DNA from: Alphaproteobacteria bacterium
Lineage (GTDB): Bacteria; Pseudomonadota; Alphaproteobacteria; Bin95
Assembly (NCBI GenBank): GCA_038102935.1
Contig: JAYNYG010000001.1
Location: 35,096-99,095, forward strand
Direction: 5' to 3'
Length of the DNA stretch: 64,000 nt
Shown: positions 6,786 through 47,047 of the stretch, piece after piece
How positions within the stretch are numbered: the stretch's first letter is position 1
Layout of the letters: each line of letters begins with the position of its first letter
The notes under the pieces: generated by a model
The model's database searches: none
The model's input: only the letters and a program-made list of their open reading frames with translations
What the model was told of the DNA's origin: nothing
Made by a program: the position numbers and the translations under genes

Positions 6786-7718
6786 ATGTCCAACATTACA
6801 ATTACGCCTTTGACGCTGCATATCGGCGCCGAAGTCAGCGGTGTAGATTTAACGAAACCACTCACGACGGATGACGCCCAGGCGATCTATCAGGCATTTC
6901 TCGATTGGAAGGTGATCTTCATTCGGGGGCAGCAATTGGACCACGCGCAGCATGTGGCCTTCGCCCGCGCGCTTGGGCAGCCGACAATCGGGCATGCGGT
7001 ATTTGGCCATGTGGAGGACTACCCGGAAGTTTATTCGGTGGCGAAACATCGTACGGCGCAAACCCATAGCGCCGCTCGCATGCAGCGCGCCTGGACTGGA
7101 TGGCACACAGACATCACGGCTGCGATCAATCCGCCAAAGGCGTCGATCTTACGCGGCGTCACCATACCGCCATACGGCGGCGATACGTTCTGGACCAACC
7201 TGAACGCAGCCTATGAAGGCCTCTCTGAAACCATGCGCGGCGTGGTGGATGGGCTGCGCGGCATTCATCGCTATATGCCGCCAGCGAATGCAACAAAAGA
7301 CGACAAATATGATGAAAGCATCAAGCGTCGGGAAATGGAGACGGAGCACCCGCTCGTCACTGTGCATCCAGAAACTGGGCAGCGGCAGCTTTATGTCAGC
7401 CCGTCATTCTTGAAATCTATCGCCGGAATGCATCCGCGTGAGAGCCAGCAAGTTCTGGAGATGCTGTGGGAGCATGTTGTCCGGCCAGAATACACCGTAC
7501 GCTTCAAATGGAACGCCGGCGATATTGCGATCTGGGATAACCGCTCGACGTCGCATCTGGCGCCATCTGACATCTTCCAGAGCGACTTCGACCGCCAACT
7601 CTATCGGATCACGCTGGTTGGCGAGACGCCGGTCGGCGTTGATGGGCGCCCATCTGTTTCCCTTAGGGGGCTACCTATTCTGGCAGTTGAAACGGAATTG
7701 ACGGAGGCGGGCGATTGA
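6786..7718 (+). CDS. TauD/TfdA-family Fe(II)/2-oxoglutarate dioxygenase
   Basis: WHTD…D / H motifs (WTGWHTDIT; …NRSTSHLA) and ~300-aa length typical of the TauD family. Confidence 0.8.
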   Translation: MSNITITPLTLHIGAEVSGVDLTKPLTTDDAQAIYQAFLDWKVIFIRGQQLDHAQHVAFARALGQPTIGHAVFGHVEDYPEVYSVAKHRTAQTHSAARMQRAWTGWHTDITAAINPPKASILRGVTIPPYGGDTFWTNLNAAYEGLSETMRGVVDGLRGIHRYMPPANATKDDKYDESIKRREMETEHPLVTVHPETGQRQLYVSPSFLKSIAGMHPRESQQVLEMLWEHVVRPEYTVRFKWNAGDIAIWDNRSTSHLAPSDIFQSDFDRQLYRITLVGETPVGVDGRPSVSLRGLPILAVETELTEAGD

Positions 7719-8113
7719 CCGCCGCACTCTCTGACGATGACAGGAAAGCTGCACGGGCGTCACTCGACGGCTTTATGGCAGCCTTTAACGCGGAGGACGC
7801 TGAGGCCATCCGCACTCGCTGGTATAATTTCCCGCATGTCCGTTTTCACAGCGGCCAAGTCACCGTTATGGAGCGGCCAGAGGATTTTCATGCGTTGGTC
7901 TGGGACAGAACGGGCCAGTCTGAAGATTGGGCGCGGACGGCCTGGGATTATGTGGAATTGATCGACGAAGGCCCGGGCAAGGCGCATTTTCGCGTGCAGT
8001 TCACCCGTTTTCGCGCCGATGGATCGGCAATCGGCAGCTACAAATCGCTTTATATCGTGACGCTGAAGGATGAGCGTTGGGCGATCCAGGGCAGGTCGAG
8101 CTGGGCTGCCTAA
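7715..8113 (+). CDS. NTF2-like (SnoaL/DUF4440-like) small protein
   Basis: 132 aa, ATGA overlap with the upstream TauD gene; alpha+beta NTF2-like composition. Weak family assignment. Confidence 0.45.
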   Translation: MTAALSDDDRKAARASLDGFMAAFNAEDAEAIRTRWYNFPHVRFHSGQVTVMERPEDFHALVWDRTGQSEDWARTAWDYVELIDEGPGKAHFRVQFTRFRADGSAIGSYKSLYIVTLKDERWAIQGRSSWAA

Positions 8114-8697
8114 GCGCCTTTCTTCCAGCAGCCTTCCATATGGTCGTCAACCAAGCCCATGGACTGCATGTAAGCATAGCAGATGGTGGGGCCGACGAAG
8201 CGGAAGCCCGCTTTTTTCAACCGCTTCGAAAGCGCTTCCGCCGCAGGCGTTTTGGCAGGAACGTCCACCATCGACTGCGGATGGTTGACGATTGTCTCGC
8301 CATCCACCGTATCCCAGATGAATTTTGAGAAACCGCCAGGCGCCTCATCCATCATCTTCAGCCAGGCTTGCGCATTGGAGATCGTTGATTCGATTTTCAA
8401 CCGGTTGCGGACAATGCCGGTGTCCGCCATCAGCCGGTCGATATCTGATTGATCGAAGCGCGCGATCTTCTCTGGGTCGAAATTCGCGAAAGCAGCACGG
8501 AAGTTTTCACGTTTCCGCAGGATCGTGAGCCAGGACAAGCCCGCCTGAAAACCCTCCAGGCAAAGCTTCTCGAAGAGCTTCCTGTCATCCCGTTGGACAA
8601 CACCCCATTCTTCATCGTGATAGCGCTGGTATTCAGGATCGTCGCCGCACCAGCGGCAACGGTCCTGACCATCCGATCCTGTAATCAGCCCACTCAT
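8110..8697 (-). CDS. tag: DNA-3-methyladenine glycosylase I
   Basis: 195 aa; Zn-binding CxxxC…H…C pattern and the conserved EGFQAGLSWLTIL…FVGPTICYAYMQ regions of Tag. Confidence 0.85.
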   Translation of the reverse strand: MSGLITGSDGQDRCRWCGDDPEYQRYHDEEWGVVQRDDRKLFEKLCLEGFQAGLSWLTILRKRENFRAAFANFDPEKIARFDQSDIDRLMADTGIVRNRLKIESTISNAQAWLKMMDEAPGGFSKFIWDTVDGETIVNHPQSMVDVPAKTPAAEALSKRLKKAGFRFVGPTICYAYMQSMGLVDDHMEGCWKKGA

Positions 8698-8718
8698 AAT
8701 CTTCTCATGGTCGGCGGG

Positions 8719-9603
8719 TTACATGGACCGGAGTTTTGGATCGAGCGCATCGCGCAGTGCGTCGCCGAACAGGTTGAACGCAAACACGGCAAGCGTGATC
8801 GCAAGACCTGGGAAAATGGCGACCCAAGGCGCGCTTTCAAAGAACTGCTCAGCGCCGCCACGGAGCATCAGCCCCCACGCCGCCGTTGGTTCCTGAACGC
8901 CAAGACCAAGATATGACAGCGAGGCTTCCAGAAGGATCGCCTGTCCGACAAAGCTTGTGACCATGATCAGATACGGCGCCATAACGTTCGGCACCATATG
9001 CACCAGCACGATCCGCGTGTGGCTGAACCCTGAGGCGCGCGCCGCATCCACATAGGGGATGTCTCGCAGCGCCAAAGCGCTGGACCGCACAACGCGGGCG
9101 CATTTCGGGATGAACGGAATGGTGATCGCGATGATCACGTTCCAGGTGCCGGAGCCGAACACGGACACAATGGCCAGCGCCATGATGATTAGCGGGAACG
9201 CCATGAAGACATCCATGATCCGTTGGAAAATCAGATCAAACCAGCCGCCGAGATACGCACTGGTCACGCCAAGCACCAGCCCAAGCGTTGCGCCGACGAA
9301 GGCTGCGATAAACCCGATCTGCAGCGCCGTGCGAGAGCCATAGATGATACGCGAGAAGATATCTCGGCCAAGTTCATCGGTCCCAAGCAGATAGGTCATG
9401 TTGGGGCCGATAAGCTGATCGGCGAAGTTCATATCAAGCGGGTCTTGCGGTGCGACGATGTCTGCGAAAACGGCGACAAACAACATCAGCATGATGAAGA
9501 CAGCAGATCCAGCGCCAAGCGGCTGGCGGCGCGCCATGCGGCGCACCTTCTGTAAGAACGAGCGCTGCTTTGGCGCGTCGGCAGTCGTGGTTGCGGTATT
9601 CAT
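8719..9603 (-). CDS. ABC transporter permease, DppC/OppC family
   Basis: 294 aa, 6 TM segments, binding-protein-dependent EAA-type loop (…AARASGFSHTRIVLVHMVPN…). Confidence 0.85.
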   Translation of the reverse strand: MNTATTTADAPKQRSFLQKVRRMARRQPLGAGSAVFIMLMLFVAVFADIVAPQDPLDMNFADQLIGPNMTYLLGTDELGRDIFSRIIYGSRTALQIGFIAAFVGATLGLVLGVTSAYLGGWFDLIFQRIMDVFMAFPLIIMALAIVSVFGSGTWNVIIAITIPFIPKCARVVRSSALALRDIPYVDAARASGFSHTRIVLVHMVPNVMAPYLIMVTSFVGQAILLEASLSYLGLGVQEPTAAWGLMLRGGAEQFFESAPWVAIFPGLAITLAVFAFNLFGDALRDALDPKLRSM

Positions 9604-9614
9604 GTTCCGGTCCC

Positions 9615-10586
9615 CTAACTATACCGAATGCGTGGATCGAGCCACGCATAGATCAGATCAATGACGATGTTCATACAGACGAAGATGAATGCGACCAGCA
9701 TCACGAGCGCTTGCGTTAGCGCGTAGTCATGGTTGGTCACGCTATCGACGAAGAGCTTGCCGAGGCCGTTCAGGTTAAACACCTGCTCTGTCACGACGAG
9801 GCCGCCCATCAGGAACGCGAACTCAATGCCGATGACGGTTACGACCGGCAGCATAGAGTTTTTGAGGGCGTGGCGGTTGACCACCAGCTTCTCAATCACG
9901 CCTTTAGCGCGCGCGGTGCGGATGTAATCTTCACGCAGCACTTCAAGGAGCGCTGAGCGTGTCATACGCGTCGCGACGGCTGAATAGCGGTAGCCGGTGG
10001 CGAGCGCTGGCCAAATCAACTGTGTGAGGTTGCCGATCGGATCTTCGATTGGCGAAACATATTGGATCGGCGGGATCCAGGCTTGGCCGAACCAATTCTG
10101 CGTCGTCCAAAGTAAGCCCAGCATAATCAGAATGCCCAGCCAGAACGACGGCATCGCGATACCCGCGATGGAAAAGCAGCGGACGACATAGTCGATCCAG
10201 GTGTTCTGGCGGATCGCAGAGATTGTGCCCATTGGAATGGCGATGATAACGCTGACAATTGTCGCCATGACCGCGACTTGCAGCGAGAGTACGGCGCGGA
10301 CGCCAATCTCTTCCGAGATCGCACGGCCTGTCCACATGGACTCGCCGAAATCGCCAATAAAGAACCCGCCGAGCCAAGTGAAGAACTGCACGTAAAGCGG
10401 GCGGTTCAAGCCGAGTTCTTCGCGGCAAATACCAATCAGGTTGGCATCGAACGATCCGCCCGTGCCTGCATACCGGAGAGCACAAATATCGCCCGGAATC
10501 ATGTGCATCAATGTGAACACGAGGATAGCCGCGCCAATAAGCGTCGGCACCATCATCAGCGTTCGTTTAACCAGATACTTATGCAT
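9615..10586 (-). CDS. ABC transporter permease, DppB/OppB family
   Basis: Track ORF extends to 10628, but homology to DppB begins at MHKYLVKRTL…HMIPGD, so the start is placed at 10586; EAA-loop TARAKGV. Confidence 0.85.
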   Translation of the reverse strand: MHKYLVKRTLMMVPTLIGAAILVFTLMHMIPGDICALRYAGTGGSFDANLIGICREELGLNRPLYVQFFTWLGGFFIGDFGESMWTGRAISEEIGVRAVLSLQVAVMATIVSVIIAIPMGTISAIRQNTWIDYVVRCFSIAGIAMPSFWLGILIMLGLLWTTQNWFGQAWIPPIQYVSPIEDPIGNLTQLIWPALATGYRYSAVATRMTRSALLEVLREDYIRTARAKGVIEKLVVNRHALKNSMLPVVTVIGIEFAFLMGGLVVTEQVFNLNGLGKLFVDSVTNHDYALTQALVMLVAFIFVCMNIVIDLIYAWLDPRIRYS

Positions 10587-29193: not shown

Positions 29194-30108
29194 CTAGGAC
29201 GCTTCGTAGGACTGAAGGATAAGTGGCTTGGCCGCTTCAAAATCTTCTGAAGATTTGATGGTGACCTCTAAATCTCCGGTTCCGAAGTGCCCAATCGTCC
29301 TAACATCGCGGGTGAAGCCATCAATCTTCTGGTTTTCAGCTAAGTTCTGATAGTTCAATTTCAGAAATAATTTCAATATTCCGATTTGGGGTTTTATTTC
29401 GACGCAGGCGAAATTCTTGATGCGCTTGAAAGCAAAGTAAAAGCGAAGTGTCTTGGAGGTGACGTCATCGCCGAGGCTAAGCAAATATATCTCAATCTCT
29501 GAATAAAGTGCTTGAAGCGCTTCATTTGCATCCGCCAGGCTCTCGGAATTGGTTTTGTAATGCGCAGAGCGGGTAGGCGCATTCTTGTTGGCTGTCGCCC
29601 GCGTCTCCGTGGATACCGCCGTTAAGAGGTCGAGCATCAGCAAGTCTTCGCCAAAGCGGCGGTAGCGGATGAGTTCAATATTCCGGCTCATTTGCTTGAC
29701 AGCATGCTCGTCATATCGTGTGAAATCTGCTGCAATACAGATGAGGCGCGGCGCGCTCCATTCGATGCCTTCCGCCGCCTTTGCGCCAAATGCGTTCAGC
29801 ACCAATAGTTCGAAATCGCCCCGGTGGTCCATCAACCAATCAAGGTAGAACAAGCCTTGATTTATAATGTTTTCGCTCCGATCTCGCTTGTATTCGATGA
29901 TAACGGGATAGCCGTTCTCATCTATGCCTAAGGTATCCATGCGCCCGCCATTGGACGTTGAATACTCTGAGGCTAGAAACCGGACGCCAAGAAGGGCGTC
30001 CAGATTCTGCTCGAACACAGTTTGCAGTGATCTCTCAAGCGGAGCGGCTGAGCTTGCTAATTCAAGCACATCGCCGCCGGCTTGCCGGAACAATTTGATG
30101 TCGCTCAT
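29194..30108 (-). CDS. PD-(D/E)xK (NucS/DUF91-like) nuclease-fold N-domain + DUF5655-like C-domain protein, lower-GC insert
   Basis: 304 aa; putative PD-(D/E)xK core MDTLGIDENGYPVIIEYKRD. Local GC is visibly lower (about 48-50%) than flanking genes. Confidence 0.5.
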   Translation of the reverse strand: MSDIKLFRQAGGDVLELASSAAPLERSLQTVFEQNLDALLGVRFLASEYSTSNGGRMDTLGIDENGYPVIIEYKRDRSENIINQGLFYLDWLMDHRGDFELLVLNAFGAKAAEGIEWSAPRLICIAADFTRYDEHAVKQMSRNIELIRYRRFGEDLLMLDLLTAVSTETRATANKNAPTRSAHYKTNSESLADANEALQALYSEIEIYLLSLGDDVTSKTLRFYFAFKRIKNFACVEIKPQIGILKLFLKLNYQNLAENQKIDGFTRDVRTIGHFGTGDLEVTIKSSEDFEAAKPLILQSYEAS

Positions 30109-42089: not shown

Positions 42090-43199
42090 ATGGCCATTCG
42101 GACCGCACTCTGTGATCTACTGGGCATCGAACACCCGATCCTGCTTGCTGGCATGGGGGTCTGGGGCATGGCGACGCCGCCGGGGCTGGTCGCAGCTGTT
42201 TCCGAGGCTGGCGGCCTAGGTGTATTGGGGTGCTCGGGGTTGAGCCCGGAAGAAATACGCCAACGCGTCAAAGCCGTCCGAGCGTTGACGGATAAGCCCT
42301 TCGGCGTGGACCTGCTGCTGCCCGCAACGCTGGCCCCAGCCGCCACGACGCGCAGCGGCGTCAGGGCTGAGCTTGATCAGAAATTCCCGGAACACGTCGC
42401 CTTTTATCGCGGCTTGCTGGACCGGTTTGCACTTGCCGAGACGCCAGTCCAAGACGATATCGTCATCTCGTCCGAATTCATTGAGGCCCAAATCGCTGTC
42501 ACGCTGGAAGAGAAAGTACCGGTATTCGCCGCTGGCCTGGGCGATCCAGGTCGTGTGACGGGCCGGGCGAAAGCGCAGGGCATGGTGACGCTTGGCCTCG
42601 CTGGCTCCCCCAGAAACGCGGCCCGGCAGGTTGAAGCAGGAGTAGACGCCGTTGTGGCGCAAGGAACGGAAGCGGGCGGGCACACGGGCCGCGTCGCCAA
42701 TTTCGCACTTTTGCCGCAAGTGGTGGATGCCGTCGGCGCAACGCCGGTGATCGCGGCGGGCGGTATTTCAGATGGGCGCGGGATCGCGGCGGCGCTGGCT
42801 TTCGGCGCATCCGGCGCATGGCTCGGCTCATTGTTCCTGACGGCGGACGAAAGCGACATGCCAGACGCCTGCAAGGATGAGCTTATCCAGGCCCGCTCCA
42901 CTGACATGGACGTCACTCGCGCCTGGACCGGCAAAACACTCCGCGCCCGCAAGAACGAAGTATCCGAAGCCTGGGCGACCAGTGGCCTCGACCCTCTGCC
43001 GACCCCGCATCAACGCGTACTAATGGAAGATTTCCTGGAGGCGGTTAAGTCCGCCAAACGCTGGGACCTCTTCATGAACGCCGCCGGCCAAGGCATCGGC
43101 ATGGTCTCCAAACGCAAACCAGCGGCAGAGATCATGGCGGACCTGATTGCGGGTACGGAACAGGCGATCGCCCAGCTGATGGCGCGGACGGGGAGGTAG
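42090..43199 (+). CDS. nitronate monooxygenase (NMO) family, second paralog
   Basis: LGIEHPILLAGMG…GGLGVLG… NMO pattern; 369 aa. Confidence 0.8.
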   Translation: MAIRTALCDLLGIEHPILLAGMGVWGMATPPGLVAAVSEAGGLGVLGCSGLSPEEIRQRVKAVRALTDKPFGVDLLLPATLAPAATTRSGVRAELDQKFPEHVAFYRGLLDRFALAETPVQDDIVISSEFIEAQIAVTLEEKVPVFAAGLGDPGRVTGRAKAQGMVTLGLAGSPRNAARQVEAGVDAVVAQGTEAGGHTGRVANFALLPQVVDAVGATPVIAAGGISDGRGIAAALAFGASGAWLGSLFLTADESDMPDACKDELIQARSTDMDVTRAWTGKTLRARKNEVSEAWATSGLDPLPTPHQRVLMEDFLEAVKSAKRWDLFMNAAGQGIGMVSKRKPAAEIMADLIAGTEQAIAQLMARTGR

Positions 43200-43224
43200 A
43201 GGTCTTGATCGCCCGCGATCCCGG

Positions 43225-43578
43225 TTAGTGCATGGCGAAGGCGCTGGCGGGGATGACGCCTTTGAAGGCGCGGCCTTCCGGGCGGACGGGCAGGCCGGTA
43301 TCGACGCGGATGCGGCCCTGGCGGTATTCGGCGTATTGCTCCGCCGCAAGGCGCGGGTCATAGGGGATGGCGGCGTGTTTCCATTCGAAGGCGAAGGCCG
43401 GGGCCGCAGCGTCCTCTGGCGCCTCATCCGCCAGGCGGAAGCCTTGGCCTTCGCGGTCCAGCCAAAGGCCGGCTTCCGCCATACGGGAGAGGATCGTGAC
43501 CGGCTGGCCATTGCTTTCGCCGATGACCGTGCCCGGCCGCATCAACACGCTGAAGGGCGCGCCTTCTTCCGGCGTCAC
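43225..43578 (-). CDS. hypothetical protein (possibly truncated at the island border)
   Basis: 117-aa ORF with high-GC codon usage, abutting the AT-rich island; no recognisable motif. Confidence 0.3.
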   Translation of the reverse strand: MTPEEGAPFSVLMRPGTVIGESNGQPVTILSRMAEAGLWLDREGQGFRLADEAPEDAAAPAFAFEWKHAAIPYDPRLAAEQYAEYRQGRIRVDTGLPVRPEGRAFKGVIPASAFAMH

Positions 43579-43621
43579 TGCCTTCCGGGCAGCTCAACCG
43601 CGCCCGCCATCCTTCTGGGGT

Positions 43622-44020
43622 TAATCCAATAGTACTAATAGCTTTTTTTTATCTTTATTCATTATCTCGGTAAAATCCGGCACTTCTTCGGCGCTAATTA
43701 TTCCTTCGATTACACTTATTGCGCTTCTATCGGATAGCTTTTGTTGCCCTGATTGGGTGCTGTCCTGGCCATTAAGGCCGTCCCACTCGAGGCCATATCT
43801 CGCGACGGTACGAATAAGATTGAATGTTGCATCCGACTCGGTGCCACCGTTAATCGAGATGGCCCCTTCAAACCAAGCTTTAGTGTTCTGATCTAGTCGT
43901 GGTTAAAACCTATTTGCCTTCAAAATATACTCATAAGCTTCGTGATACCCCGCTTCTCCACGGTTAGCTTGTTCAAACAACTGCTTCAGTCGACAAATTT
44001 GGTAATTTGTTAACTTCATT
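43622..44020 (-). pseudogene. degenerate ORF with in-frame TAA (MKLTNYQICRL…ANRF*PRLDQNTKAWFEG…)
   Basis: Own translation of the minus strand: ~130 codons in one frame interrupted by a single TAA; AT-rich; no Met after the stop. Confidence 0.3.
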
Positions 44021-44110
44021 TGGACCGGCATCAGTTTTCACTCTTCATGTTTCGAACGTCCAACCATGAAATAATAGTATTGTTAGCAAACTTGAATGAG
44101 TTATCCACAC

Positions 44111-44644
44111 CTATACTTGGGATAAAGGAAAATAATTATGGCCAGCAAGGTGAAATTTGCTCAAATAAAAATACCCATGGCATCGCGATCCTAAATACAA
44201 AGAGTGCTTGTGCGTGTCACATACTGCAAAATAAGCAATACCCGATTTAGACAAATCATTCACTGCTATCTCAGATAGCTCCACAGTTGCTGGCTTAAAT
44301 ATCTTTGTGCTCGTTCCACTTGCACGTGATTCATAAGGTGATCCTTTTGATACGATTCTATCGACTCGGCTCAATATCTCTGACGAATTCTTGAAATCCA
44401 TTGCATTCCATATGTCGCCGCGTTCATCCATAAACGCAACATACACAATGGAGGAAAATTTGCCCCCTTCAAGATCGGGGCATATTAATGATCGATCAGA
44501 TTCTCTAAACATACCGGCAAGAGGTTGAATGTCAGGCATCCGGAATACCGCTGCAGCCTTAGAATCACCGTATCTAAGGCCACCGGCATTAATGGGAATA
44601 TGTGGCGGAATCATATTTACGTATTTCGTTCGAAGAGGATTCAA
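44111..44644 (-). CDS. hypothetical protein within the AT-rich island
   Basis: 177-aa ORF, AT-rich codon usage unlike the host genome; no recognised domain. Confidence 0.3.
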   Translation of the reverse strand: MNPLRTKYVNMIPPHIPINAGGLRYGDSKAAAVFRMPDIQPLAGMFRESDRSLICPDLEGGKFSSIVYVAFMDERGDIWNAMDFKNSSEILSRVDRIVSKGSPYESRASGTSTKIFKPATVELSEIAVNDLSKSGIAYFAVCDTHKHSLYLGSRCHGYFYLSKFHLAGHNYFPLSQV

Positions 44645-44885
44645 ATATATAATCGGTATTGTTGCTGAGGTTTAGTCAGATAACTTCACCGTTTGCAGTA
44701 ATCCGCGATACCAAGATAGTGCAATCTGATGTTTGTTTAATTCTGAGCGCTCTATGGTTGAACAAGAATTTTCATAATCTGCATAGGCGATTGCCGACCT
44801 GCTTCCGCAGATACATAGGCATGAAAAGACCAAGCATAGGAATATATTCGTCGCGGCCCGAGCTTGCAGACAAATGCTATTCATC

Positions 44886-45240
44886 TCACCGCTCCCTCAA
44901 ACTTTCATCCGCATACCGAAGCAGCGGACTCAGGAAAAACGTTATCGTGCGACTTGCCCCCGTTTTCACTTCCGCAGCCACAGCCATACCAGGCGTCAGT
45001 GGTACCCGACGGCTATCCACCGGTATACTAGTTTCAGCCATGGAGATGCGGGCCTCATACACAAGGCCGCGTTGTTCGTCCTGGATGGCGTCCGCGGAAA
45101 CGCGGAGGACTTTGCCTTTGATGAGGCCGTAGCGGGTGAAGGGGAAGCTTTCCACCTTGATCTCTACCTCCTGACCGGCGCGGACGAACCCTGCGTCCTT
45201 GTTTTGGACGAAAGCTTCAATCTCCAGGCCGCCTTCGGCG
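44886..45240 (-). pseudogene. HlyD-family type I secretion membrane-fusion protein, C-terminal fragment only
   Basis: Translation …GGLEIEAFVQNKDAGFVRAGQEVEIKVESFPFTRYGLIKGKVLRVSADAIQDEQRGLVYEARISMAE…LSPLLRYADESLRER closely parallels the E. coli HlyD C-terminus (…VEAFPYTRYGYLVGKVKNINLDAIEDQRLGLVFNVIISIEE…LSPLEESVTESLRER). An in-frame TAG lies upstream and the N-terminal ~350 aa are absent. Confidence 0.7.
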
Positions 45241-45458
45241 GGCCAATGCTATCGTTTCCCTGGCAGCAACACCGGGTCCGCCGGGTTGACCACTGCGCCC
45301 AATGAAGAGACCTAAAGGTGTAGAACGATACCGTTGCTGAATCCCAAGTGCAACGATAGAGACTTCAAGCTCTTTTGCGTGTGCGCCTACGTCTTCCAGA
45401 CATTCAACAGTTATAATAATCTTTGTCCTAACTTTGTACGCTAACGGAGACTCACCTC

Positions 45459-46505
45459 ATGACCCTCGCCGCACAGACCTATGACATCGCTGATATGGCG
45501 ACGGCGCAGGAGTATTATCATAGTCGTGGGTGGACGGATGGGCTGCCTATCGTGCCGCCGACGGCGGAGGCCGTGCAGGCCTGTCTTGAATGGGCGATGA
45601 TGACGCCGGATCAGCTTGTGGGCGTAGAGCCCGTGCGGGAACGGGCGATTACGGCGGAGAAATTGGCGATCAATGCTGTCATGGCTGGGTGCCTGCCGAT
45701 GCACTTTCCCGTGGTCGTCGCGGCGTTCACGGCGATGCTGCAGGAGCCGTTTTTGATGCATGGGGCGACGGCCAGCACGGGCGGGTGTGCAGTGCTGATC
45801 GTCATCAACGGGCCTGTCCGCAAGGAACTCGGCATGAGTGGGCAGTTCAACGCCATCGGCTCCAGCGACCGGGCGACGTCTGTTATCGGGCGGGCGATCC
45901 GGCTGACGATGATCAACCTGATGGATGTGCGCCCCGGCCATATTGACCGATCTACGCTCGGCCATCCGGGCAAGTTCAGTTATTGCATCGCGGAGGATGA
46001 GGAAAACTCAGCGTGGCTGCCGCTCGCCGAAGAGCGGGATTGCCCGCCGGGCGCATCCTCCGTCACCGTGATGGCCGCGATGGCGCCGCGTCAGCTTATG
46101 AATGAGTGGACGACCGAGCCAGAGCAAATTCTGGATACGTTTGCTGCTGAAATCAAAGCGAATATGCGGCATTACTCGATCTGGCCTGGCAACTACGCCA
46201 TCGTCATAGCACCCCAACTTCGCACGCATTTCGAGAAGGCTGGATGGTCCAAGGCGGATGTCAGGCGCTATGTGTTTGAGAAAGCGCGTATCCTCAGGAA
46301 AGAATGGGCGGATGTCGGTAAAGCCTCCGTTGTCAAGCGGCGCGGCGATCAGGAATATGCGGCATTGCCGGATGAAGATCACCTGTTGGTCATCGCTGCT
46401 GGCGGCCCCGCCGGCGGGTTCGGCGCTGTTATCCCGCCCTGGCTTGGTCATAAAAGCCGGGCCGTCACAATCCCCATCGGCGTATGCGTCGATTGTGAAA
46501 TTTAG
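45459..46505 (+). CDS. conserved protein of unknown function, UGSC-selenoprotein-associated (paralog 1)
   Basis: 348 aa; shares GWTDGLP(I/V)VPPT, AINAVMAGCLP(M/E)(H/Y)FPVV, HG(A/S)TASTGG, GMxxxxNxxGxxNRAxxxIGRAxRL, GHPGK(F/Y)SYCIAE, AGWSKAD and C-terminal CVDCEI/CIDCD blocks with 48032..49111 and 20512..21966. Confidence 0.6.
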   Translation: MTLAAQTYDIADMATAQEYYHSRGWTDGLPIVPPTAEAVQACLEWAMMTPDQLVGVEPVRERAITAEKLAINAVMAGCLPMHFPVVVAAFTAMLQEPFLMHGATASTGGCAVLIVINGPVRKELGMSGQFNAIGSSDRATSVIGRAIRLTMINLMDVRPGHIDRSTLGHPGKFSYCIAEDEENSAWLPLAEERDCPPGASSVTVMAAMAPRQLMNEWTTEPEQILDTFAAEIKANMRHYSIWPGNYAIVIAPQLRTHFEKAGWSKADVRRYVFEKARILRKEWADVGKASVVKRRGDQEYAALPDEDHLLVIAAGGPAGGFGAVIPPWLGHKSRAVTIPIGVCVDCEI

Positions 46506-46525: not shown

Positions 46526-47047
46526 TTGCAAGTTCTTGATCCAACCCATGAAGCCGATGTGGTGGGGCTCGTGCCGCCGCCGAGGCTGGACACGCTGGCG
46601 GGCAAAACCGTCGGCGTGATCTCAAACGGCAAGGAGGGCACCAAGCGCTTCTTCGCTGCGATTGAGGCTGAGCTGCGCGAGACCCACGGTGTCGCCGATG
46701 TCGTATGGCGCACCAAAGGCAATTATTCCGCGCCGGCGCCAGAAGCCATCATGGCGGAGGCGGCAGGCTGGGACGCCATCATCTCCGGGGTTGGGGATTG
46801 AGGCAGCTGCTCGTCGTGCAGTTTGCATGACGCAGTGGCTGGCGAACGGATGGGCGTGCCCTCTGCGGGCGTTATGACCGTGCCGTTTTCAGATGCGGCA
46901 GACCTGATGGCCCGCGTGCTCGGCGCGGAAGACTTCCCGTTTGTGGTAATCGACCACCCGATCAGCAGCGCCTCTGAAGAGGCGTTGCGGGAGCAAGCGA
47001 AAACCGCTGTGGCGCAGAGCGTCGCGATCCTGACGAAAGCGGCCTAG
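46526..47047 (+). CDS. UGSC-family selenoprotein (in-frame TGA at 46799..46801 read as Sec; 173 aa)
   Basis: Track ORFs 46526..46801 and 46823..47047 are in the same frame separated only by TGA. The context is …ISGVGD-U-GSCSSCSLHD… (a U-G-S-C UxxC motif). A paralog at 49127..49648 has identical architecture, and a hairpin lies directly 3' of the UGA. TTG start. Confidence 0.6.
46802..46832 (+). promoter_or_regulatory. putative bacterial SECIS hairpin immediately 3' of UGA
   Basis: GGCAGCUGC[UCGUCGU]GCAGUUUGC is an 8-bp stem (one bulge) with a 7-nt G/U-containing loop. The paralog has GGCAGUUGC[UCAACGU]GCAGUUUGC, where the C→U change keeps pairing (U·G). Confidence 0.45.

Follow-up and report, generated by a model that had tools for sequence, protein, structure and literature searches.

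An hlyD 3′ fragment followed by decaying AT-rich genes in an alphaproteobacterial genome, and related units at other loci

In a 64-kb stretch of DNA (64,000 nucleotides, hereafter the window) from an uncultured alphaproteobacterium (assembly GCA_038102935.1, contig JAYNYG010000001.1, positions 35,096 to 99,095), the 3′ end of hlyD, the gene of the membrane-fusion protein of type I secretion systems (T1SS), is followed immediately and on the same strand by a short run of AT-rich open reading frames (ORFs). We consider it probable that positions 43621 to approximately 45338 of the window are an orphaned and decaying cassette, composed of an hlyD 3′ "anchor" and its "cargo", which stems from the variable region of some RTX-type T1SS loci. 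The anatomy of the unit, the family of repeats to which the anchor belongs, the recombinant forms of these repeats and the decay alleles of the cargo, on which this reading builds, were all observed directly.

The mechanism that we propose is as follows. In a subset of RTX-type T1SS loci the DNA after the hlyD stop codon would be a hypervariable, AT-rich cargo region, which encodes small membrane-anchored or exported proteins and which, where the contigs reach further, is followed by a large RTX gene. The cargo would be exchanged between strains by homologous recombination at the anchor, the conserved 3′ end of hlyD serving as the upstream homology arm, and each insertion may leave behind a displaced hlyD 3′ end, building arrays of the type anchor-cargo-anchor-cargo. 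The unit in the window consists of an anchor with a broken 5′ part, the split cargo gene A (ancestrally about 284 amino acids) and cargo ORF B, has no secretion machinery of its own, and occupies a strain-variable slot that extends from the NMO gene to a gene for a 348-amino-acid (aa) protein. The cargo may once have acted as the partner of a T1SS substrate, in the manner of an immunity protein or of FrpD, and by now the unit has presumably lost its function in this genome. Its features are:

43621–44031, minus strand: cargo ORF B ("psi135"), in translation 42 codons, a TAA at 43903–43905, 93 startless codons and a final stop at 43621–43623
44111–44644, minus strand: "orf177", the C-terminal part of cargo gene A (public gene calls give 167 aa), 186 stop-free codons, an ORFan
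44672–44884, minus strand: N-terminal part of cargo gene A ("orf70", 70 aa; from the ORF list and hydropathy), ending at a TAA at 44672–44674
44886–45155, minus strand: terminal 89-codon ORF of the hlyD fragment (TIGR01843, Pfam HlyD_3), GTG start, TGA stop at 44886–44888, GC content 0.58
45156–45338, minus strand: degenerate 5′ part of the hlyD fragment (from translation, tblastn and the family alignment)

The hlyD fragment and the AT-rich genes behind it

An initial annotation, made from the sequence alone, had described the last 115 codons or so of an HlyD-family protein. The fragment is genuine and lies on the minus strand, but it is longer than that: the homology to HlyD spans about 150 codons (to approximately 45338, faintly traceable to approximately 45360), the last 120 of which are open. 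It matches positions 304–422 of the 422 positions of TIGR01843 (type_I_hlyD) with E = 1.7e-42 and 145.9 bits, a score that falls short of the cut-off for full-length members (208.65 bits) since the fragment comprises no more than the C-terminal third, and it matches Pfam HlyD_3 with 9e-09. A tblastn search with an intact HlyD C-terminus extends to 45335–45338, and no HlyD-like sequence was found 5′ of approximately 45360. The last 120–150 codons align with the C-terminal beta-barrel region of the HlyD-family membrane-fusion proteins (TIGR01843; E. coli HlyD, CyaD, AprE), including the ...FLSPL...ESLRER end. Unlike these proteins, however, the fragment is disrupted at its 5′ side and lacks the transmembrane (TM) segment, the lipoyl domain and the coiled-coil hairpin, and neither an ABC transporter nor an RTX substrate is encoded next to it. 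It is a gene fragment, which as such cannot function as a membrane-fusion protein.

That the fragment is decayed, as had been proposed, is borne out by two in-frame TAG codons in its 5′ part (45249–45251 and 45312–45314) and by a 14-nt insertion relative to the related copies (45247–45260), which make it a pseudogene fragment. The 5′ part diverges from the copies of the family at 25–30% of the sites, the terminal ORF at 17–19%. The latter, which has an AGGAGG at 45167–45172, 11 nt ahead of its GTG (in the related contig L083 the motif is found 5 nt ahead of an ATG), shows 82–91% aa identity to ORFs of 89–98 aa at other loci. When the window was searched by tblastn with HlyB, with the N-terminal part of HlyD and with an RTX protein, no hlyB, no 5′ part of hlyD and no RTX gene were found, the only match being an unrelated ABC ATPase at 59.7–61.1 kb; a six-frame scan of the window for RTX repeats (GGxGxD) was negative, too. 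There is thus no sign that a whole export locus, of which the initial annotation had seen the eroded remains, was present at this site. A second hlyD copy elsewhere in the window was considered and rejected, none having been found. Neither among 5.8e9 proteins nor in metagenome contigs was there an intact hlyD with more than 64% identity to the fragment.

Proteins of 141–151 aa that correspond only to the C-terminus of HlyD were considered as a special family and rejected. The one checked in its context, P0003 from Methylocaldum, is part of a frameshift-split hlyD in an otherwise complete operon. In an RTX-hlyB-hlyD operon of Methylocaldum marinum (L175, positions 6903–10456; AP017928.1, deposited as a complete genome) both hlyB (353 + 357 aa) and hlyD (319 + 151 aa) are split, and the splits are either frameshift pseudogenes or sequencing errors.

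The AT-rich DNA begins one base past the hlyD stop codon and is restricted to 43621–44885. Its GC content of 0.417 is the minimum of the whole window and lies about 6 standard deviations below the mean of windows of the same size (0.590 ± 0.028). The initial annotation had outlined a low-GC island of 0.40 GC at 43600–45440 in a background of 0.62. A sharp low-GC patch is indeed there, but not in this extent: the background is 0.59 and the span as outlined has 0.46, for it covers four parts, namely the cargo DNA, the hlyD fragment, an AT-rich spacer and the edge of a GC-rich ORF. The hlyD fragment itself is not AT-rich (GC content 0.58–0.59 over 44886–45338), and the segment on the left-hand side (43200–43620) has a GC content of 0.69. 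Corrected for base composition, the DNA has no distinctive dinucleotide signature (delta* of 0.086, equalled or exceeded in 11 of 96 control windows), and direct or inverted repeats in the flanks, of which att-like direct ones were to be looked for, are no longer than expected by chance. No tRNA or tmRNA gene and no match to an Rfam family were found in the window, no ORF for a recombinase in 43200–45460 (ORF list and Pfam), and nothing above shuffled sequence in a promoter and terminator scan of the locus. From what characterizes genomic islands, the deviating composition and the absence from the related contigs L003–L006 are thus found, an integrase, a tRNA gene and att borders are not. As a whole the initial observation was real although mis-delimited, so that it is confirmed in part, and its interpretation was partly right.

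With respect to the coding content, two AT-rich ORFs had been described, one of them interrupted by TAA. The interruption is present, but there are three ORFs (70 aa, 177 aa and 42 + 93 codons), all on the strand of the hlyD fragment. They had also been called frameshifted; the only frameshift seen is a 1-nt indel polymorphism at 44133, which separates two C-terminal versions of cargo gene A. The ATG of orf70 is located 1 nt past the hlyD stop codon, and its residues 8–34 form a Sec-type signal peptide or hydrophobic segment (...SRSAIA/YA). Only orf177 exceeds the length expected from shuffled sequence (186 stop-free codons, P about 0.001), the open stretches of 91, 86 and 78 codons being marginal (P 0.02–0.08). 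Homologues of orf177 other than itself were found neither in a word-indexed search of 5.8e9 proteins nor in an exhaustive phmmer search of 1.84e9 representatives, and its AF2 single-sequence model, calculated for the 167-aa ORF, is unusable (pLDDT 32). Cargo ORF B (about 135 codons), which had no homologues in the protein search, ends exactly at the low-GC boundary and, although its length alone is within chance, is purine- and G-rich in codon position 1, as is found in coding DNA; it is a probable pseudogene. The DNA of the island had no match in plasmids and phages, and the cargo and anchor proteins had none in viral contigs.

How the cargo decays can be followed in four sister strains (L001, L002, L182 and L183), which together with the window are five independent assemblies from different projects, 99.6–100% identical and each with its own single-nucleotide polymorphisms (SNPs). 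At 44672–44674 the window and L001 have TAA where L002, L182 and L183 have TAC (Tyr), and L183 encodes a continuous cargo gene A of 284 aa with a Sec-type signal peptide (P0125). Judged from these alleles, orf70 and orf177 are the halves of one gene, split by the strain-specific nonsense codon. L182 has an independent nonsense allele (TAA) at 44244 in the same gene, whereas the TAA at 43903–43905 in cargo ORF B is common to every strain contig that covers that site. In the 2.35 kb compared there are about 12 polymorphic sites, three of which independently disrupt cargo gene A. This gene was functional until recently and is now being lost. The 89-codon hlyD ORF, for comparison, has only one SNP among the sister strains, and this one is synonymous. 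Thus, the proposed erosion of the AT-rich genes is substantiated by at least three independent disruptive alleles. Intact small genes in related genomes, which in the terms of the initial annotation would have made the segment a functional low-GC locus instead of a remnant, were encountered in part: L183 has the intact 284-aa gene, the other strains carry different knock-outs.

Related anchors beside chrB and at intact secretion loci

The fragment is not confined to the window. Copies with 77–90% nucleotide identity adjoin chrB, a gene for chromate resistance, in related contigs from marine metagenomes (L083–L094, L178–L181, L184), one of which shares its sample with the window locus; to the copy in the window the chrB-site copies have 77–83% DNA identity. 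The points at which homology to the fragment starts differ by no more than a few tens of bases between copies, and in every copy it breaks off precisely at the stop codon. The cargo stretches that follow are AT-rich (GC content 0.32–0.45 versus 0.60), and the cargo ORFs begin 1 nt past the stop codon of the anchor or overlap it. The 5′ ends being nearly identical at another locus and in tandem arrays, with different AT-rich cargo behind them, the fragment does not look like the product of a random deletion. Four contigs illustrate the layouts beside chrB:

L083: nothing after the anchor; the next gene, for an acyl-CoA dehydrogenase, is convergent
L089: anchor, 100-aa ORF with two TM segments, second anchor, 134-aa ORF with signal peptide
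L184: the first two units as in L089, then a different cargo (85 aa, two TM segments); the break is at the stop codon of the anchor
L179: anchor, then an IS5-type ORF

L180 and L181 contain hybrids of the two L089 anchors (c1 and c2) without the intervening cassette, which demonstrates recombination between anchors. The 284-aa product of the window's cargo gene A and the 134-aa cargo of L089 can be aligned collinearly from just past the signal peptide with 23% identity (pairwise E = 4e-06), and the BLASTP alignment to the L089 ORF crosses the junction of orf70 and orf177. Since the anchors that go with these two cargo genes are 85–90% identical, the anchors are conserved and the cargo of one family is hypervariable.

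Between the start of chrB and the anchor there is a non-coding spacer of about 146 nt (L083 7676–7840; L089 1376–1540; L178 1561–1725), whose divergence between L089 and L178 is 4.8% as compared with a rate of synonymous substitution (dS) of 0.23. Such a low divergence points to a divergent promoter or a regulatory region under constraint.

The same layout is found where the secretion genes are intact. The closest intact relatives of the fragment (50–64% identity) are encoded in operons of the order RTX-hlyB(C39-like)-hlyD. In about 12 metagenome loci with an intact hlyD (50–60% identity) the GC content falls by 0.07–0.20 right after the hlyD stop codon, and of the 12 loci in which AT-rich DNA follows hlyD, 10 have a hydrophobic segment encoded in the next ORF on the same strand. 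Most informative are L123, L128, L129 and L130, whose T1SS genes are 96–99% identical and which have four different sets of cargo from the hlyD stop codon onward. For example, L128 equals L129 plus an insertion of 1134 bp, which encodes two small membrane proteins and has the hlyD 3′ end on either side as direct repeats of 208 nt (98% identity); in L098 the 3′ end of hlyD recurs 2.2 kb downstream as a repeat of 310 nt. A stub that precedes variable ORFs is thus the layout of the window, and arrays are found in L089, L184, L128, L130 and L098, in the last three of these contigs downstream of an intact hlyD, which is not the case in the window nor at the chrB site. Replacement of cassettes from strain to strain at the junction between conserved and variable DNA is seen when L089, L184 and L181 are compared, and likewise for L123, L128, L129 and L130, but not at the window site.

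Downstream of the cargo there are genes for large RTX proteins with HemolysinCabind and HCBP_related repeats (L128 12063–15722; L123 11623–18135; L130 10501–13275). Their N-terminal few hundred residues differ between the strains L123, L128, L129 and L130, and in the proteins of L123, L128 and L130 they are entirely dissimilar and have no family match; they are candidates for swappable domains on substrates with a C-terminal signal. In three loci that are otherwise different, an N-terminally anchored protein of 219–234 aa is encoded right after hlyD (L111 9043–9702; L123 10937–11608; L132 1922–2626). By eye these proteins, which have no Pfam match, share sequence (…W(I/V)…(D/E)MW…NYFN…ERIN…SL…), and they may be a recurrent, unnamed cargo family. 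The cargo DNA of L128 (10250–12100) has, besides its low GC content, a GC skew of +0.3 to +0.5 and an AT skew down to −0.39, an asymmetry that the island in the window does not show.

Architectures of this type are known from other toxin systems. In orphan cdiA-CT/cdiI modules and in the orphan tips of Rhs genes a stub of the conserved gene precedes foreign ORFs, the modules form tandem arrays, and the cassettes differ between strains. As in the hlyD anchors, the breakpoints are at the junction of conserved and variable sequence, and recombination between stubs deletes cassettes. There, however, the stub derives from the toxin gene, whereas here it is the 3′ end of hlyD, a gene of the secretion machinery; moreover, no toxin domain or immunity family can be recognized in the cargo, and the arrays in the window and beside chrB are detached from an intact system. 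Clusters for class II microcins and bacteriocins also have a membrane-fusion protein gene beside genes for small hydrophobic proteins in low-GC DNA, but the anchor scores as RTX-type (TIGR01843, 1.7e-42) rather than as bacteriocin-type (TIGR03794, 0.006). A C39 exporter was not found in the window, nor, on reading the ORFs of the island, a GG/GA (double-glycine) leader, for which no formal motif scan was made.

In Neisseria meningitidis the lipoprotein FrpD is encoded just upstream of the RTX protein FrpC and binds to its N-terminal part (PMC5472700). The intact loci resemble this pair in that a large RTX gene, whose N-terminal region varies between strains, is directly preceded by genes for exported or membrane-anchored proteins, and cargo gene A of the window likewise encodes a protein of about 284 aa that starts with a signal peptide. 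Sequence similarity to FrpD is lacking, however, and the window has no RTX gene. FrpD/FrpC was the only parallel met in the literature, in which no description of hlyD 3′ repeats or of T1SS orphan cassettes was found. As far as the literature shows, the pattern is therefore an undescribed variant of the orphan-cassette architecture.

It is tempting to go one step further, although we regard this only as a tentative possibility and a rather doubtful one: part of the RTX-type T1SS loci could carry an undescribed cassette system in which the hlyD 3′ end is the landing pad for AT-rich genes exchanged horizontally, their products being small membrane or exported proteins that act as partners or immunity factors of RTX proteins with variable N-termini, and in which detached anchors persist under purifying selection as stand-alone pads or as translated leader ORFs, so that cargo would continue to be collected in genomes that have no such secretion system. 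Should the 3′ ends of hlyD in general be recombination anchors for variable cargo that lies between exporter genes and RTX substrates, this would provide a genomic rule by which partner or immunity proteins of T1SS substrates that have escaped annotation can be found, and a route to RTX proteins with swappable N-terminal domains, and the concept of the "orphan module", known from contact-dependent inhibition and from Rhs systems, would extend to type I secretion. The anchors would also offer, on a small and tractable scale, an example of a gene fragment that evolves like a coding sequence after having lost two thirds of the gene.

Selection on the anchor and alternative explanations

Several points weigh against interpreting the unit as an orphaned anchor-cargo cassette. 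The general pattern rests on only about 12 metagenome loci. The five assemblies share one configuration at the window site, so that an exchange of cassettes is not demonstrated there, and an intact T1SS of this anchor lineage was not found, so that the parent system has to be inferred. Duplicates of the anchor could arise by illegitimate joining, by Campbell-type insertion or by a recombinase acting in trans. The cargo ORFs of the window have no match in Pfam, PHROGs, NCBIfam, PADLOC or the sequences of the PDB, and those of the other loci have no match in Pfam and show only generic features (signal peptides, TM segments). With every cargo ORF lacking a family match, the toxin or bacteriocin content that had been envisaged initially is not borne out. 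Finally, the chrB-site copies that share the truncation have ratios of non-synonymous to synonymous substitution (dN/dS, omega) of 0.11–0.24, with P values of 1e-3 to 1e-8 for the synonymous excess. Purifying selection of this kind on the last 89 codons is not expected of a dead remnant, unless the anchors are refreshed repeatedly by recombination with functional hlyD genes, and none of these was found.

It is unlikely that the unit is a one-off remnant, as the initial annotation had it, i.e., an acquired T1SS or bacteriocin export operon that was mostly deleted, leaving the last 150 codons of hlyD and two downstream genes to decay. Stop codons and an insertion in the anchor and nonsense and frameshift alleles in the cargo are what such a remnant would have, and its site is a hotspot at which DNA is gained and lost in related species, L006 having kept the deletion remnant of a copper-resistance cluster (see below). 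Random deletions that occurred independently would, however, not yield fragments whose 5′ ends almost coincide at another locus and in tandem arrays. In addition, all trace of hlyB, of the hlyD 5′ part and of an RTX gene is missing, and with a dN/dS of 0.03–0.24 the terminal ORF is too well preserved for a neutral remnant.

This preservation could mean that the unit, or at least its anchor, is functional: the ORF for the 89–91 C-terminal residues of HlyD may be a stand-alone gene, or an upstream ORF that drives the coupled cargo, for example an immunity gene kept after loss of the exporter. We consider this rather improbable. Between the window copy and the others the last 89 codons have a dN/dS of 0.03–0.06 at a dS of about 1, and differences between anchors concentrate at third codon positions (e.g., 7/5/25 for the three positions). 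The chrB-site copies share the 5′ truncation and a compensating pair of +1/+2 indels; for L089c1 and L178, which are orthologues, omega is 0.23, and the dS of the fragment (0.237) equals that of the adjacent chrB (0.226), which looks like constraint after the truncation. A function would also go along with the AGGAGG ahead of the starts in L083 and in the window, with cargo that begins 1 nt past or overlaps the anchor stop, with a chrB-anchor spacer that diverges by 0.048 as compared with 0.23 at synonymous sites, and with the intact 284-aa cargo gene that one sister strain has kept. However, it is not obvious how a piece of 89 aa from a periplasmic beta-barrel domain would fold or, lacking both a signal peptide and a TM segment, get to the periplasm, and translational coupling needs no conserved amino-acid sequence. 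Some anchors have in-frame deletions (P0018), and the cargo was knocked out independently in several strains. It should also be noted that for L083 and L089 the dS of the fragment (0.46) is far below that of chrB (1.38) and that recombinant anchors exist (L181; the P0131 anchor in L184); exchange with a functional hlyD could therefore mimic selection.

Even less probable, and in our opinion not very plausible, are site-specific integrative cassettes, i.e., small mobile elements that enter the hlyD 3′ end, bring along a replacement 3′ end and depend on a recombinase encoded elsewhere. A precedent for such an insertion is e14 or phage 21 at the icd gene of E. coli, where the insert is bracketed by two icd 3′ ends that differ mainly at synonymous sites. 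The cargo is similarly bracketed by 3′ ends of its target gene: direct repeats of the target flank it (the 208 nt in L128), the anchors differ mostly at synonymous sites, as if each had to complete a functional hlyD, and the same unit is found at two unrelated chromosomal sites. Unlike e14 and phage 21, the cassettes are only 0.4–1.3 kb long and have no integrase, phage genes or attachment core. In or near none of them was an integrase or recombinase gene found, the only mobile-element genes seen being IS3- and IS5-type ORFs; the repeats vary widely in length (113, 208, 310 and about 450 nt), a short common core or inverted repeat is missing at the junctions, and there was no match in phage, plasmid or viral collections. 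An artefact of assembly or binning, by which foreign low-GC DNA was chimerically joined to a high-GC contig, might be suspected from the abrupt change in GC content in uncultured, metagenome-derived genomes, but is practically out of the question because the five independent assemblies (window, L001, L002, L182, L183) carry the same junctions on both sides.

The chromosomal slot and its neighbours

An orphaned anchor-cargo cassette would be one of several fillings of its site. The NMO gene (ending at 43199), the gene for the 348-aa protein (45459–46505) and the genes downstream of it are collinear in the four closest species (94% aa and about 80% nucleotide identity). In two of these the slot holds a copper-resistance cluster encoding a small membrane protein, a cupredoxin, a multicopper oxidase and a CopB-like protein (L003 1368–7007; L004 6351–10001), in a third one only a 0.5-kb deletion remnant of this cluster (L006 9534–10029). 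With contents that differ in this way between relatives, the slot qualifies as a hotspot for the gain and loss of DNA. An intact ancestral element, for which related genomes were to be compared, was therefore not what was found at the site, copper-resistance genes being there instead, and this candidate was rejected. The horizontal origin proposed for the AT-rich genes is supported by their foreign composition and by their absence from the four closest species. Not so the idea that the neighbouring selenoprotein (UGSC) locus arrived with the island: it is contradicted by the collinearity of the NMO gene, the 348-aa gene and the downstream genes in species that lack the island, and the selenoprotein genes are part of the conserved backbone. 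Within this genome alone, the unit is a decaying accessory remnant of an ordinary kind whose slot is variable, and it is uninformative on the origin of the selenoprotein genes. To the left and right of the unit the slot contains:

43225–43578, minus strand: GC-rich ORF of 117 aa (GC3 0.82) between the island and the convergent NMO gene, absent from the syntenic contigs L003, L004 and L006
45339–45458, no strand: AT-rich spacer (GC content 0.44, 120 nt; from composition) from the hlyD remnant to the divergent 348-aa gene, unique to this lineage

The spacer has no homology to the equivalent spacer of L003–L006, with which blastn alignments begin at 45459; presumably it now carries the promoter of the 348-aa gene. 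The 117-aa ORF belongs to the strain-specific filling of the slot (2.26 kb), its membership in the cassette being uncertain. It has no match in Pfam, PHROGs, NCBIfam, PADLOC or the PDB, and its AF2 model has a pLDDT of 44. That it is a remnant of hydantoinase B was considered, but is probably not the case, the sole support being a match over 30 residues at E = 0.2–0.8.

The UGSC cluster begins with the gene of the 348-aa protein (plus strand). This protein, whose last residues are …GVCVDCEI, is without a match in Pfam, NCBIfam or PHROGs, but is conserved at 70–94% identity in at least 350 genome contigs from Alpha-, Beta- and Gammaproteobacteria, Acidimicrobiales and Acidobacteriota. Directly after its gene there is a frame of 174 codons (46526–47047, plus strand) with an in-frame TGA at 46799–46801 that is followed by GSC (…SGVGD-U-GSCSSCS…). 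In the public gene calls of the sister contig L182 four small ORFs at this place are tagged PF24696:UGSC, which are two TGA-split pairs. Rfam reported no bacterial SECIS element at the UGSC locus at the gathering threshold.

The second-lowest GC patch of the window (0.44–0.55) is located at 29194–30108 on the minus strand, where an ORF of 304 aa lies between a nitronate-monooxygenase-like and an acetyl-CoA-synthetase-like gene. By eye only, the N-terminal part of its product resembles a nuclease motif of the PD-(D/E)xK or DUF91 type (…DTLGID…IIEYKRD…).

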